Translations under genes and position numbers: made by a program
Part shown: piece by piece, positions 18,041 through 23,309 of the stretch
Position numbering within the stretch: position 1 is the stretch's first letter
Layout: every line of letters begins with the position of its first letter
Source: Candidatus Poribacteria bacterium
GTDB taxonomy: Bacteria; Poribacteria; WGA-4E; JAJDTR01
Direction of reading: 5' to 3'
Length of the DNA stretch: 64,000 nt
Assembly (NCBI GenBank): GCA_965204085.1
Contig: CBDBEE010000003.1
Location: forward strand, 1,449,981-1,513,980
Notes under the pieces: model-generated
Databases searched by the model: none
What the model saw: the letters and a program-made list of their open reading frames with translations, nothing else
Told to the model about the DNA's origin: nothing

Positions 18041-18244
18041 GTGAAACTAAAAATCATTCTCCACGAAGCGGAAGAGGGTGGATATTGGGCAGAAGTGCCC
18101 TCAATTAAGGGATGTGTGAGTCAAGGTGAGACGCTTGACGACTTGATTGAGAACATCTCTGAGGCAATAGAAGGTTGTTTATCTGTGGATATCAGTGATT
18201 GCGATGTCGGCGAGAAAGACACAGTCATGGAGATAGCCGTTTGA
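18041..18244 (+). CDS. hicB: HicB-family antitoxin (UPF0150-like).
   Basis: KLKIILHEAEEGGYWAEVPSIKGCVSQGETLDDLIENISEAIEGCL matches the HicB N-domain pattern. GTG start. Stop overlaps the hicA TTG start (gtTTGAaat). Confidence 0.65.
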   Translation: MKLKIILHEAEEGGYWAEVPSIKGCVSQGETLDDLIENISEAIEGCLSVDISDCDVGEKDTVMEIAV

Positions 18245-18447
18245 AATCCCTGACGGGAAAAGAGTTTTGCCGTTTATTGAATAGGAAAGGTTGGGAATTG
18301 AAGCGAATCAAGGGCAGTCATTACATTTTCGCCAAGGATGCACCTTCTGCCCGAATCTCGGTTCCCGTTCACGGGAATAAAACTCTCAAGCAAGGCTTGC
18401 AGCGGCATCTCATGAAAATAGCGGGTATTGATGAAAGTGAATTGTAG
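18241..18447 (+). CDS. hicA: HicA-family mRNA interferase toxin.
   Basis: LKSLTGKEFCRLLNRKGWELKRIKGSHYIFAKD...VPVHGNKTLKQGLQRHLMKIAGI is the YcfA/HicA pattern. TTG start at 18241. Confidence 0.65.
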   Translation: MKSLTGKEFCRLLNRKGWELKRIKGSHYIFAKDAPSARISVPVHGNKTLKQGLQRHLMKIAGIDESEL

Positions 18448-18468
18448 CAGGGAGTTCAGGAGTTTATA

Positions 18469-19335
18469 ATGGCGACATTAAGAGAAATTAGACGCCGTAT
18501 CGCAAGTGTCGAGAATATCAAGCAAGTAACAGAAGCGATGCGGGTGGTTGCAGCCGCAAGGCTGCGCCGCGCTCAAGAAAATATCTTGGCGACACGACCG
18601 TTCGCGGAAAAGTTCAACGCAATTTTAAGCCACTTGATTGCACAGATTGAAAATCCGACCCATCCGTTGTTGGAAAATCGGGATTTAAAGAATGTGTGTC
18701 TCATTTCTATCAGCGCCGATCGGGGGTTGTGTGGAAGTTTTAACAGCAATGTGATTCGCTCAACAGTGGAAAGGGCGCAGCATTATCAGGATGGCGGCGC
18801 TGCCGTAAAAATCATCTGTGTAGGCAGACGCACTCGAGATTATTTTGTGCGGCGAGACTATGACGTCATTGCGGAATACGTCAACATATTTCGAGATCTT
18901 AAGTTTGAATCGGCGGTTGACATTGTTCATGAGTTTGAGCATCTTTATACTGAACTGCAGATTGACAAAGTAGAGGTGATTTACAACAATTTCAAGTCTG
19001 CCATCCTGCAAACAGTTCTCGTCGAACAGTTGTTGCCGCTTTCTCCTGAAGCTCCAACGGGTGACGAACTCTTTCTCGACTATCTGTATGAGCCGGGACA
19101 GGAGGAAATCTTCCAGTCCGTATTGGCGAAACACCTGAATATGCAGATGTGGAAGGTTCTACTGGATTCCAACGCGGCGGAGCAGGCAGCGCGGATGGCA
19201 GCCATGGAAAACGCGACACGTAATGCCACGGATCTCATTGACGAACTGATTTTACAGCGCAACCGCGCGCGACAAACCCAGATTACAACGGAAATCTCCG
19301 AAATTGTGAGTGGCGCAGCGGCATTGGAGGGTTAG
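18469..19335 (+). CDS. atpG: F0F1 ATP synthase subunit gamma.
   Basis: MATLREIRRRIASVENIKQVTEAMRVVAAARLRRAQE is the canonical gamma N-terminus. Confidence 0.9.
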   Translation: MATLREIRRRIASVENIKQVTEAMRVVAAARLRRAQENILATRPFAEKFNAILSHLIAQIENPTHPLLENRDLKNVCLISISADRGLCGSFNSNVIRSTVERAQHYQDGGAAVKIICVGRRTRDYFVRRDYDVIAEYVNIFRDLKFESAVDIVHEFEHLYTELQIDKVEVIYNNFKSAILQTVLVEQLLPLSPEAPTGDELFLDYLYEPGQEEIFQSVLAKHLNMQMWKVLLDSNAAEQAARMAAMENATRNATDLIDELILQRNRARQTQITTEISEIVSGAAALEG

Positions 19336-19345
19336 AATTTTAGTT

Positions 19346-20218
19346 GTGTTGAGAAATCTTATCAATTCTTCCATTGTTGTATTGTTCTTGACGGGTGGGT
19401 GTTTGTCCGCATTCGGTCATGGAGAAGCATCCACTCTGTTGGAGGATGTCAACAACGATGGTGTGGTGAATATTTTAGACTTGGTTATGGTGGCGAACGC
19501 CTTTGGGCAACCTGTCGATCGACATTCCGAGCAAAATCCGGATGTGAATCGTGACGGCACCGTTAATGTGTTGGACCTTGTTCGAATTGCCAGCCGCATG
19601 GGCGAAACCGCGGGAATCGATAACTCAACTTATCACGATATTCAGGACTATGTATTCAATAAGAGTTGTGCAACGAGTTACTGTCACGCAGCGCCGACAA
19701 ATGCCGGCAATCTGAATCTCACAAACAGGATTTCGTACCACGATTTAGTGGGGCGTGTACCGCAGAACCTCGCTGCGGCATCGGCGGGGATGAAGTTGGT
19801 TGATCCGGGCAACCCGGACAACAGTTTTCTTTTGACAAAACTCGTAGGACCAACATCTGCGGCACAGGGGGGACGCATGCCTTTGGCTGCTGGACCGCTG
19901 CACAGTGGGAAAATAGATGCAATCCGAAAGTGGATTGCCGCTGGGGCATCTCAGACTGATAAACTTCCTGGCGTCGGCGATCTCAGCGTGTTGCGCGATC
20001 CGCTCGAGACCTTTGAGCCACCTCCGGCGCCGCTGCCTGGTGAAGGTTATCAGCTCCGTTTACCACCCTTTATCATTGAACCCGGCACGGAGTTGGAAGT
20101 CTTTTACTCTAGACAGATTACCGACGCAACTGGACAACCGTTGCAGGAGGATATCTTCGTCAATACGTACGAATTGTGTATCCTACGGGCAGCTACCACT
20201 TCATACTGTATCGGATAA
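19346..20218 (+). CDS. Secreted protein with dockerin-like repeats and a PSCyt1-like domain, plus the start of a copper type II ascorbate-dependent monooxygenase (PHM/DBH-like) domain. Probably the 5' part of a frameshifted gene.
   Basis: Signal peptide. DVNNDGVVNILDLV and DVNRDGTVNVLDLV repeats. C..CH-like CATSYCHAAP...SFLLTKLVGP...MP...IRKWIAAGA resembles PSCyt1. Tail PPFIIEPGTELEVFYSRQ...EDIFVNTYEL resembles the PHM N-domain start. Reading frame ends at 20218. Confidence 0.5.
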   Translation: MLRNLINSSIVVLFLTGGCLSAFGHGEASTLLEDVNNDGVVNILDLVMVANAFGQPVDRHSEQNPDVNRDGTVNVLDLVRIASRMGETAGIDNSTYHDIQDYVFNKSCATSYCHAAPTNAGNLNLTNRISYHDLVGRVPQNLAAASAGMKLVDPGNPDNSFLLTKLVGPTSAAQGGRMPLAAGPLHSGKIDAIRKWIAAGASQTDKLPGVGDLSVLRDPLETFEPPPAPLPGEGYQLRLPPFIIEPGTELEVFYSRQITDATGQPLQEDIFVNTYELCILRAATTSYCIG

Positions 20219-22170: not shown

Positions 22171-22563
22171 ATGACAAAGCCCATCATCATAGATCAGGAA
22201 GTGCTATCGTGGGAGGGGTGGGAAGATGCGGAAGTCGCTGCCAAGAGCGCGATACGTTGGAAGATTCTAATTTCCAGCGAGCGAGGTCCAAGCGCAGGGC
22301 TAGTTACCGGTTTGGCGGAGTTTCCAGTCGGCACTCGACTGCCACTTCATCACCACGAACCTCCGGAGACCTATTACATCGTCAGTGGGCGGGGCAACAT
22401 GGTAATTGACGGTCATGAATCAGACATCGGACCGGGGTCTACAGTCTACATCCCGTCTAATGCCAAACACGCTGTATGGTGCACCGGAAATGAGCCGTTG
22501 GTTTTCGTGTTTTCCTTTGCGTGCGATCGATTCGACGAGATTGTCTACCACTTCGACGAGTAG
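22171..22563 (+). CDS. Cupin-domain protein.
   Basis: LPLHHHEPPETYYIVSGRGNMVIDGHE...GSTVYIPSNAKHAVWCTG has the two cupin motifs G(X)5HXH and G(X)5PXG...H. Confidence 0.65.
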   Translation: MTKPIIIDQEVLSWEGWEDAEVAAKSAIRWKILISSERGPSAGLVTGLAEFPVGTRLPLHHHEPPETYYIVSGRGNMVIDGHESDIGPGSTVYIPSNAKHAVWCTGNEPLVFVFSFACDRFDEIVYHFDE

Positions 22564-22597
22564 TCGGATTGTGAAGGGGGCTATTTAAAGAAACATA

Positions 22598-23071
22598 ATG
22601 CCCTACGATGTCGAAAAACAGATTCAGGAGGCGATGGAACGGGGCGACTTCGAGAAGTTGCCCGGCAAGGGGAAACGGCAGGAGTTGAAAGTAAACCCGT
22701 TTGTTCCGAGTGAAACCCGCATAGTCAACCAGATGCTCAAAGACAACGGATTTGCACCGAATTGGATTGAGGTAGACAAAGAAATTCGTGCCGAGTGCGA
22801 ACAATCCAGAAAGATGCTGGGGAACATCAAACGGCGCCGCCGACAGCTAGAAGCAGCGATTCGTGCCCAACCACTCAAAAGCGACAGGGTACGTCGGGGT
22901 TTTGAACTTGAGCGAAAACGGGCGCTAGAGACATACATAAGCCAACTGAAAGGGCTTAATCAAAAGATTCTCAGATATAATCTTACAGCGCCAGGGCGCA
23001 GTAGACAGAAGTCTATGTACAACCTTGATGACACGATAGCTCAATTTCAGAAGGAGTACCCGAGCCTTTAG
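22598..23071 (+). CDS. DUF1992 (DnaJC28-like) domain protein.
   Basis: IQEAMERGDFEKLPGKGKRQELKVNPFVP...MLKDNGFAPNWIE matches the conserved DUF1992 N-terminal pattern. Confidence 0.55.
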   Translation: MPYDVEKQIQEAMERGDFEKLPGKGKRQELKVNPFVPSETRIVNQMLKDNGFAPNWIEVDKEIRAECEQSRKMLGNIKRRRRQLEAAIRAQPLKSDRVRRGFELERKRALETYISQLKGLNQKILRYNLTAPGRSRQKSMYNLDDTIAQFQKEYPSL

Positions 23072-23133
23072 AGTTTGTTCGAGTGATAGATGAAAAAGCC
23101 GTTTTTGGACATTTGAGGCTATTACTTGTGGGA

Positions 23134-23180
23134 TCTCTATCGCATTCGCTATTGGTGGTTTGATGGTCACTAGCGCTTTG
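23134..23180. repeat. Family 2 interspersed repeat.
   Basis: cttgtgggatctctatcgcattcgctattggtggtttgatggtcac, at the right edge of the accessory island before atpD. Confidence 0.5.
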
Positions 23181-23309
23181 AAAGGCTGGTGTGCAATGCG
23201 CACCCTACGAGTCTAGCGTCCATTTCCGCAAGAAGTACCCTAGTAGTAAAAGGATAGATAAGTCAGAACTAGAAATGATATGTACGATTTTTAGAAAGGA
23301 AGATATGCG

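Follow-up and report, generated by a model that had tools for sequence, protein, structure and literature searches.

Passenger genes and variable cassettes in the interrupted F-type ATP synthase operon of Candidatus Poribacteria

The genes of the F-type ATP synthase are divided between two operons in cyanobacteria and chloroplasts, where atp1 ends with the gamma subunit gene and atp2 comprises beta and epsilon. Integration hotspots between core genes hold variable cargo that is exchanged by homologous recombination in the flanks, and intergenic palindromic repeats of the repetitive extragenic palindromic (REP) and bacterial interspersed mosaic element (BIME) type occur in operon spacers, for example in Escherichia coli. 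The intervening sequence (IVS) elements of ribosomal RNA (rRNA) are substrates of RNase III. F-ATPase gene order itself is described, in a preprint passage that cites two earlier papers, as 'highly, but not universally, conserved' (Koumandou & Kossida 2014; Niu et al. 2017, cited in bioRxiv 10.1101/2021.01.01.425057). Here we describe the atp operon of a sponge-associated Candidatus Poribacteria genome (GCA_965204085.1), as found in a 64,000-nt stretch of contig CBDBEE010000003.1 (positions 1,449,981-1,513,980, + strand), hereafter the window. Its atp genes are interrupted by a hicBA toxin-antitoxin module between atpA and atpG and by four passenger genes between atpG and atpD. An interrupted operon is the rule in Poribacteria, the atpG-atpD distance exceeding 200 bp in 74 of 80 species, and it is an old trait of the lineage, not a recent insertion. 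Full-text searches of the literature found no description of atp operon layout in this phylum.

All coordinates are positions in the window unless a relative is named, and L-numbers label the atp loci of relatives. Gene identities come from a listing of open reading frames (ORFs) and Pfam scans of the window. The set atpZ-I-B-E-F-H-A-G-D-C is complete at 12861-25203, as ten intact, Pfam-confirmed ORFs on the + strand, and the canonical order a-c-b-delta-alpha-gamma-beta-epsilon is kept once the inserted genes are disregarded. Contiguity is broken by 438 bp with hicBA at the atpA|atpG junction, and by 3,974 bp at the atpG|atpD junction that hold a frameshifted dockerin/PHM-like gene, a tandem-domain lipoprotein gene, a cupin gene and a DUF1992 gene. 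A REP-bearing spacer of 335 bp separates atpF from atpH. A first-pass annotation of the window had reported these interruptions, and it is borne out on the overlapping hicB-hicA pair (by Pfam and ORF coordinates), on the roughly 4 kb of non-atp genes after atpG, on the lipoprotein, cupin and DUF1992 genes within them, and on the REP-containing gap before atpH. It was also correct that the downstream atp genes must still be expressed. The locus reads as follows.

12861-13157, + strand: atpZ (ATPase_gene1; Pfam PF09527, 2.8e-11), beginning 30 bp past nuoN
~13159-13578, + strand: atpI (Pfam ATP-synt_I, 7.2e-6 on a longer ORF; 139-aa gene call from relative L001)
13589-14488, + strand: atpB, subunit a (Pfam, 3.1e-50)
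14575-14892, + strand: atpE, subunit c (Pfam, 2.3e-14)
14963-15574, + strand: atpF, subunit b (Pfam, 2.1e-21)
15612-15808, no strand: 197-bp insertion in the atpF-atpH gap, with REP-B at 15685-15720 and REP-A at 15729-15754, specific to the window/L007 species
15910-16449, + strand: atpH, delta/OSCP (Pfam, 1.6e-49)
16501-18030, + strand: atpA, alpha (Pfam, 1.8e-82)
18041-18244, + strand: hicB, 67 aa (Pfam HicB_lk_antitox PF15919, 1.4e-7)
18241-18447, + strand: hicA, 68 aa (Pfam HicA_toxin PF07927, 9.6e-18)
18469-19335, + strand: atpG, gamma (Pfam, 1.8e-95)
19346-20961, + strand: gene for a secreted dockerin/PHM-like copper monooxygenase, apparently a pseudogene here (Pfam Dockerin_1 and Cu2_monoox_C; alignment to five relatives)
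21041-21862, + strand: predicted lipoprotein with two ferredoxin-like alpha+beta-barrel (Dabb/ABM-like) domains (AlphaFold2, Foldseek, weak Dabb/EthD matches)
21872-22042, no strand: strain-specific 171-bp segment whose REP-A inverted doublet (21936-21987) forms a hairpin; L007 has 11 bp in its place
22171-22563, + strand: Cupin_2 protein (Pfam, 4.7e-17)
22598-23071, + strand: DUF1992/DJC28_CD protein (Pfam PF09350, 9.6e-21)
23125-23165, - strand: REP-B copy in the DUF1992-atpD spacer (repeat search)
23290-23309, + strand: atpD leader with ribosome-binding site AGAAAGGAAGATATGCG, conserved across 80 loci
23310-24719, + strand: atpD, beta (Pfam, 7.7e-67)
24796-25203, + strand: atpC, epsilon (Pfam, 7.8e-24)

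Homologues of AtpG assign the genome to Candidatus Poribacteria. Relatives were drawn from the neighbourhoods of six AtpG homologues and from one genome per GTDB species. The species scan yielded 80 Poribacteria loci with 10-kb flanks, in which the window proteins were located by tblastn. An atpG|atpD gap of 200 bp or less was found in only six species. The gap measures 201-600 bp in four, 601-1500 bp in 36 and more than 1500 bp in 32, and in two (L067 and L083) atpD lies more than 10 kb from atpG. In both loci the 10 kb downstream of atpG yielded neither atpD nor atpC, and the operon appears to be fully split at the gamma|beta junction. DUF1992 lies in the gap in 61/80 species, the lipoprotein gene in 29/80, the cupin gene in 28/80 and the dockerin/PHM gene in 10/80. 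On a neighbour-joining, midpoint-rooted tree of AtpA, AtpG and AtpD, the deepest split has DUF1992-bearing operons in both of its branches. In one subclade (L056, L072, L078 and others) atpG is immediately followed by atpD with no DUF1992 in the gap, and scattered species outside this subclade also lack it there. Provisionally, we regard DUF1992 as the oldest resident of the junction.

Closer to the window, the block is present at atpG|atpD in all nine genus-level species representatives, whose AtpG proteins are 95-99% identical. The order dockerin/PHM, lipoprotein, cupin, DUF1992 is the same as in the window in eight of the nine, and the block of the other (L015) is without cupin and DUF1992. 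Sister clades carry cupin-DUF1992-lipoprotein (often with a thiamine-pyrophosphate enzyme), cupin-lipoprotein, or cupin-dockerin/PHM-DUF1992-lipoprotein, while the gap cargo of other lineages includes a Cu/Zn superoxide dismutase, DUF4258 pairs, an aspartyl-protease pair and two-gene unknowns. The first-pass annotation had proposed looking in relatives for the uninterrupted arrangement; the comparison found the interrupted layout, free of repeat boundaries, to be common to most of them, the outcome it had itself associated with an ancestral layout. Its concern about mis-assembly can likewise be set aside, because independent assemblies from several projects and different technologies (accessions beginning OZ, JAJDTR, JAPPIK and ERZ) share this layout.

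Several occupants of the gap deserve separate mention. The clade with 85-86% AtpG identity (L019, L022, L023, L024 and others) carries the thiamine-pyrophosphate enzyme, of ~598 aa (TPP_enzyme_N/M/C), between the lipoprotein gene and atpD, and this gene is fragmented in L037. The L007 locus, collinear with the window at ~97% DNA identity over 12 kb, contains one more gene between DUF1992 and atpD, for a Cu/Zn superoxide dismutase lipoprotein (L007 14620-15861; Sod_Cu, 6.2e-42). Superoxide dismutase, PHM-like copper enzyme, cupin and ABM-like barrel together lend the cargo a loose flavour of oxygen and metal enzymes. A PADLOC search of hicBA and of the relatives' cargo returned only a PDC-M08B match, to one aspartyl-protease-like gene in L054.

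Substitution rates between the window and seven genus members bear on the age of the block. The ratio of nonsynonymous to synonymous rates (dN/dS) of the passenger genes is 0.05-0.30, except for one DJC28 (DUF1992) comparison at 0.45; DUF1992 spans 0.17-0.45, the highest among the passengers. These ratios show that the passengers are under purifying selection and encode functional proteins. Their synonymous rates (dS, 0.5-1.2) fall in the range of the flanking atp genes, which, together with purifying selection, indicates that the block was inherited with the operon. GC content is 0.46-0.53 across 18000-23500, like the flanks and with no deviation. Pfam scans found no integrase or transposase domains in the 4-kb block, and there are no direct repeats at its edges (19336/23309). 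With normal composition, no mobility genes, no direct repeats and no patchiness across the nine genus-level species, the block does not look like a horizontally acquired island. The 4 kb had been read as an accessory island placed by repeat-mediated insertion, and that reading is not supported, given the same dS and GC values and the presence of the block, mostly without REPs, in relatives.

Synonymous divergence is uneven along the operon. Against L008, atpA has a dS of 0.36 where its neighbours have ~0.75, and against L010 the values for DUF1992 and atpD are 0.11-0.20 compared with 0.57 for atpA. This pattern (16501-18030 against L008; 22598-24719 against L010) suggests mosaic recombination between Poribacteria species.

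The locus can be set beside the two kinds of arrangement that it most recalls. It shares the gamma|beta breakpoint with the split operons of cyanobacteria and chloroplasts, and two Poribacteria species are fully separated there. Unlike those operons, the two halves in Poribacteria are otherwise adjacent and co-directional, with one to five passenger genes between them, and the alpha|gamma junction is occupied as well. The likeness to integration hotspots lies in variable content at a fixed site, in the patchy occurrence of hicBA, the IVS-protein (IVP) gene or nothing, and in a cassette that is closer than its flanks in one pair of genomes. However, the Poribacteria site lies inside an essential operon, and the gamma|beta cargo is for the most part old and passed on vertically rather than rapidly turned over.

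At the atpA|atpG junction, 60 of the 80 species have a short spacer, 12 have an IVP gene and six have hicBA, in addition to the window. The IVP cassette consists of a gene for a ~150-aa four-helix-bundle '23S rRNA IVS protein' (PF05635/TIGR02436) with 24-25 nt inverted repeats of TAATRCG heptamers. It is carried at ~9400-10000 in L008, L010, L013, L014, L024, L025, L027, L032, L033, L036 and L054, and also at atpA|atpG in L003 (AtpG 83%), which lies outside the 80 species loci. Short spacers are often made of TACGCATTACG-like heptamers, and 'empty' junctions keep the heptamer palindromes. Heptamer hairpins are also seen in the window at 25298-25328 (past atpC), 34170-34200 and 60498-60567. No further hicBA or IVP copies were found elsewhere in the window or in the relatives' loci. 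The cassettes in the 12 relatives resemble the intervening sequences of 23S rRNA, as a PF05635 ORF with 24-25 nt inverted repeats in a highly expressed transcript. They differ in their host, which is an atp messenger RNA (mRNA) spacer and not rRNA, and the window itself has hicBA.

Within the genus, hicBA carriers and IVP carriers are intermixed on the tree, and L011, a hicBA carrier, nests among IVP-bearing species. The hicBA genes of L011 are 89-93% identical to those of the window, compared with 76-88% for the flanking 3′ end of atpA and atpG, and their dS is 0.26-0.35 against 0.85-0.99 for the flanks. This suggests that hicBA and IVP cassettes have been exchanged by recombination through the conserved flanks. 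No REPs are present at the hicBA boundaries. Judged by these comparisons, only the hicBA position behaves as a probable site of repeated insertion or replacement.

The hicB gene comes first, and the TTG start of hicA overlaps its stop (GTTTGA) by 4 nt. Aligned to PDB 4C26, HicA has G-S-H at the H24 position, so that the catalytic histidine is kept. HicB consists of the N-terminal domain only, aligning to residues 3-50 of the 142-aa Burkholderia pseudomallei HicB (6G1N), and the C-terminal DNA-binding domain (ribbon-helix-helix or helix-turn-helix) is absent. Short HicB proteins of the UPF0150 type are a known subclass. The module therefore agrees with the B. pseudomallei HicAB system (4C26/6G1N/6G26) in the HicA fold family and catalytic histidine, in the neutralising N-terminal domain of HicB and in its overlapping genes. 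It departs from that system in its 67-aa HicB without a DNA-binding domain, in having no obvious promoter of its own and in placing the antitoxin gene first. Without a DNA-binding domain in HicB, autoregulation is unlikely, and hicBA is probably expressed from the host operon rather than from an autoregulated promoter.

Two repeat families are dispersed through the window. REP-A (GTAGGAGCGATCTCCGAATCGCGAC) often forms an inverted doublet, and REP-B, of ~37 nt, ends in GCGATAGAGATCCC. Both exceed chance, with four matches to GTAGGAGCGATCTCC against 0.11 expected and eight to GCGATAGAGATCCC against 0.52. The 13 REP motif matches in 64 kb fall at eight intergenic sites (1638, 3888-3981, 15685-15754, 21936-21987, 23125-23165, 27874-27948, 29784-29866 and 36139-36194), compared with 27 matches in 1.73 Mb of relatives' loci. 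In REP-A doublets the folded stems exceed 20 bp (z -2.9 and -4.3), the hairpin at 21936-21987 reaching -29.4 kcal/mol (z -2.85), while REP-B is not clearly palindromic. As in REP/BIME elements, the repeats are short, imperfectly palindromic and dispersed between genes, and their inverted doublets are stable hairpins. Unlike those elements, the window families are unrelated in sequence to enterobacterial REPs, and the symmetry of REP-B is not clear.

The first-pass annotation had taken such repeats to bracket the 4 kb. Their existence above chance stands. The bracketing does not, as only the cupin and DUF1992 genes lie between 21936 and 23130. The copy at 21936 sits between the lipoprotein and cupin genes and the copy at 23130 between DUF1992 and atpD, and they belong to different families, so the block is not delimited by repeats. 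Genus-level relatives lack REPs at the corresponding positions, except that L007 has one of them. REPs as island boundaries are rejected on both counts. What was borne out is that REP-like elements have been inserted in intergenic regions of the operon, at atpF-atpH, lipoprotein-cupin and DUF1992-atpD.

Comparison with L007 dates these insertions. The two loci differ by three intergenic indels, two of which carry REPs: the 171-bp REP-A hairpin segment (21872-22042) found only in the window, the 1,242-bp Cu/Zn superoxide dismutase lipoprotein gene found only in L007 at DUF1992|atpD, and a 228-bp REP-B doublet found only in L007 at atpD|atpC. Since L007 lacks the 171-bp segment at ~97% DNA identity, this segment is younger than the block. 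The 197-bp atpF-atpH insertion is confined to the window and L007; L008 does not have it, and there the BLAST alignment picks up again at that very position. The atpF-atpH gap is 335-339 bp in the window and L007, 143-148 bp in most genus members and 269 bp in L015. The DUF1992-atpD spacer is 62 bp and repeat-free in L008, L011 and L013. Evidently, a REP expansion in this species seeded pre-existing spacers. A 500-bp spacer between nuoG and nuoH (3554-4054) holds the same composite as atpF-atpH, with REP-B at 3888-3923 and REP-A at 3955-3981. Operon spacers outside atp have therefore received REPs as well.

The first passenger is split between two frames, with a dockerin ORF at 19310/19346-20218 (Pfam, 1e-12) followed by a Cu2_monoox_C ORF at 20176-20961 (7.7e-9). 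Relative to five relatives, the window has a 1-nt deletion near 20172, outside any homopolymer, and a His-to-Tyr change (HH to YH) in a conserved HH motif, which by analogy with PHM would supply copper ligands; those five relatives keep both the frame and the motif. The ORF is intact in the 97%-identical relative L007 (550 codons) and in L006 (a 534-aa gene). The C-terminal Cu(M) domain (PF03712) is matched at 7.7e-9 in the window and 4.2e-8 in L007. It looks as if the gene was recently pseudogenised in this strain. The earlier description of a frameshifted dockerin/PSCyt1/PHM-like gene holds for the frameshift, the dockerin and the PHM-like domain. The PSCyt1 label is rejected, because the intact L007 orthologue has no PF07635 match even at E<=1 and the sequence has C-x4-CH in place of a CxxCH motif. 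A frameshift was also seen in atpD of the long-read metagenome-assembled genome L005/L066 (11526-12931), where it is probably an assembly indel error, and this calls for care with every frameshift reported from these genomes.

The predicted lipoprotein has 273 aa with an internal duplication. Its AlphaFold2 model, built on a 27-sequence alignment (mean predicted confidence, pLDDT, 80.6), contains two beta-alpha-beta-beta-alpha-beta domains. Foldseek matched it in the PDB to putative ABM-type monooxygenases (3f44 and 3mcs; E ~1e-11, TM 0.5-0.7), and further to an anthrone-oxidase-like protein, chalcone isomerase and chlorite dismutase. These matches are tandem ferredoxin-like alpha+beta-barrel proteins with identities of at most 15%.

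NCBIfam gave no informative name to any passenger gene; the DUF1992 protein matched PRK10203 ('hypothetical protein') below threshold, at E 4.4e-10 and 40 bits against a cut-off of 155. Full-text searches found nothing on the function of DUF1992. Its association with atp genes is confined to Poribacteria: among 83 loci recovered with the DUF1992 alignment (33 of at least 5 kb), atp genes occur in two, both Poribacteria, and are absent from the other 81 metagenome loci. Neighbours elsewhere are diverse and include rpsU, methyltransferases and ScpB. Of two contexts in Chloroflexi, one is beside rpsU and the other between Lon-substrate-binding and MutS genes, and E. coli yhdN (DUF1992) comes after rplQ. 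This lineage-specific linkage favours long-term hitch-hiking.

How the interrupted operon is expressed can be judged from its spacers. Every gene runs in the same direction, and the spacers are short at atpA-hicB (10 bp), hicA-atpG (21 bp), atpG-dockerin (~10 bp) and cupin-DUF1992 (34 bp). Upstream of atpD only ~20 nt are conserved across the 80 loci (GGAAAGGAAGATAAACG-ATG), whichever gene precedes, and similar short leaders precede atpG, atpH and atpA. The search for internal promoters upstream of atpD and atpG that had been proposed for this locus found no conserved promoter-like block; no conserved -35/-10 elements precede atpD, and no conserved motif beyond the ribosome-binding site leaders precedes atpD, atpG, atpH or atpA, in any case across the 80 loci. 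Sigma-70-like matches number 18 against 11.3 +/- 3.4 in shuffles, a marginal excess under a consensus that may not be the host's, with weak matches at 15777-15804 and 22042-22070. Terminator-like matches (16 against 11.5 +/- 3.3) are not clearly enriched. There is no convincing terminator after atpG or DUF1992, where folds are unremarkable, and an Rfam search of 12000-26000 (E<=1) found no known RNA element. These scans give internal promoters and terminators little support. Because only the ~20-nt leader is conserved before atpD, read-through transcription, with each atp gene carrying its own ribosome-binding site leader, would be the most economical account.

Beyond these junctions, small ORFs matching the epsilon C-terminal helical domain (ATP-synt_DE) occur in L004 (16791-17066 and 19866-20006) and downstream of atpC in L065, L072, L073 and L078. 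They sit a few kb past the genuine atpC, and one is fused to DUF6932. On the other side, the nuo (complex I) cluster at 1805-12830 leads directly into the atp operon, nuoN ending 30 bp from atpZ. A CitMHS_2 transporter gene (9893-11368, E 2.8e-181) is embedded between nuoM (8354-9892) and nuoN (11388-12830), as it also is in L001 and L006. Between nuoH (4055-5239) and nuoJ (5276-5983) the window has no ORF of the size of nuoI. At 33321-33933 (- strand), beside a GDP-mannose dehydratase gene, an HTH_3 protein gene (119 aa) overlaps an 87-aa ORF without a Pfam match, which may be another toxin-antitoxin pair.

We consider it likely that this is the single intact F1Fo operon of a Poribacteria genome, with two junctions that tolerate foreign genes, vertically inherited passengers, later REPs and read-through expression. 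A DUF1992 gene would have entered the gamma|beta junction before the sampled Poribacteria diverged, followed by accretion of the cupin, the tandem alpha+beta-barrel lipoprotein and the secreted dockerin/PHM-like enzyme. Since then purifying selection has kept the passengers, which were inherited vertically with the operon, while individual lineages reshuffled, lost or added genes. The alpha|gamma junction would serve as a small cassette site that holds hicBA, a 23S_rRNA_IVP gene with heptamer inverted repeats, or nothing. Related species would swap these occupants, probably through homologous recombination in the highly conserved atp genes on either side. REP-like elements, unusually abundant in this species, were inserted afterwards into several spacers. 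Expression of atpG, atpD and atpC would most likely proceed by read-through from the operon promoter, and the passengers would be co-expressed. The comparisons show the genes present, their spread over the phylum, the selection on them and when the REPs came in, whereas co-transcription and the part of recombination in the exchange are inferred. Some points weigh against this account. The tree is a neighbour-joining, midpoint-rooted one of three very conserved proteins, which makes the order of events within the genus and the 'ancestral' status of DUF1992 provisional, and the recombination signal at hicBA comes from ~400 bp. Errors of long-read assembly may account for some frameshifts in relatives, as they probably do in atpD of L005/L066. 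An unrecognised internal promoter may exist, and the spacers before the cupin gene (308 bp) and atpD (238 bp) have the length to accommodate it.

Such promoters are central to a different account, in which atpZ-A, atpG with its cargo, and atpD-C are separate transcription units, as in cyanobacteria. This is unlikely, even though L067 and L083 demonstrate that separation at the junction is viable and the window offers spacers of 238-335 bp with two weak sigma-70-like matches. The absence of a conserved promoter-like block before atpD or atpG, the 62 bp between DUF1992 and atpD in most genus members, the 21 bp between hicA and atpG, and a promoter-match count only marginally above shuffles all speak against it. 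We see far less chance that the 4-kb block and hicBA arrived recently as accessory DNA in a previously contiguous operon, with REP-like repeats either mobilising or targeting them. REP-like elements do exceed chance in three operon spacers, and the L007 indels show that their insertion is ongoing in the species. However, the block is found in all nine genus-level species, and partly in deeper clades, without REPs at its edges, and the two repeats within it are of different families. Its dS matches the flanks, no mobility genes, direct-repeat boundaries or GC shift accompany it, and the edges of hicBA are also free of REPs. A chimeric join that placed unrelated genes in the operon has next to no chance of being the explanation, given the same order in independent assemblies and the collinearity of L007 over 12 kb.

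It is also possible, if rather improbable, that DUF1992 and perhaps other passengers are lineage-specific accessory, assembly or regulatory factors of the ATP synthase, retained for co-expression. The occurrence of DUF1992 in most species across the deepest split, its purifying selection and its closeness to atpD would fit such a role. Yet DUF1992 is beside atp genes in Poribacteria only, among diverse neighbours elsewhere, and is missing from the gap in scattered species and throughout one subclade. Among the passengers it has the highest dN/dS, and for the remaining ones, which are secreted or periplasmic enzymes, a link to ATP synthase is not plausible. More speculative, and very unlikely in our estimation, is that both junctions are put to use, DUF1992 serving as a Poribacteria-specific factor in F1 (gamma/beta) assembly or regulation while the alpha|gamma cassettes process or gate atp mRNA. 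HicA would then act as an mRNA interferase, paired with a short antitoxin that does not bind DNA and relies on transcription of the operon, and the alternative cassette of relatives would be a hairpin element resembling the IVSs that RNase III cleaves in rRNA. If true, the cell would link either toxin activation or the stoichiometry of subunits to how its energy-conserving machinery is expressed.

Under the account that we favour, of an old operon with tolerated passengers, the interrupted atp operon is an ordinary phenomenon newly documented for the phylum. Passenger genes, toxin-antitoxin modules and REPs in operon spacers are all already familiar, and knowledge of the workings of ATP synthase or toxin-antitoxin systems is unchanged by the result. 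For annotation pipelines, synteny-based rules for the atp operon fail in Poribacteria. For DUF1992, a family of no known function, one lineage now offers a genomic context that is reproducible. Structurally, the operon appears to be weak at the gamma|beta junction, where cyanobacteria and chloroplasts also have their breakpoint. The Poribacteria loci form a natural series for the study of insertion tolerance in essential operons, from empty through one gene and five genes to fully split. One of the most conserved bacterial operons is thus able to carry passengers stably over a very long time.

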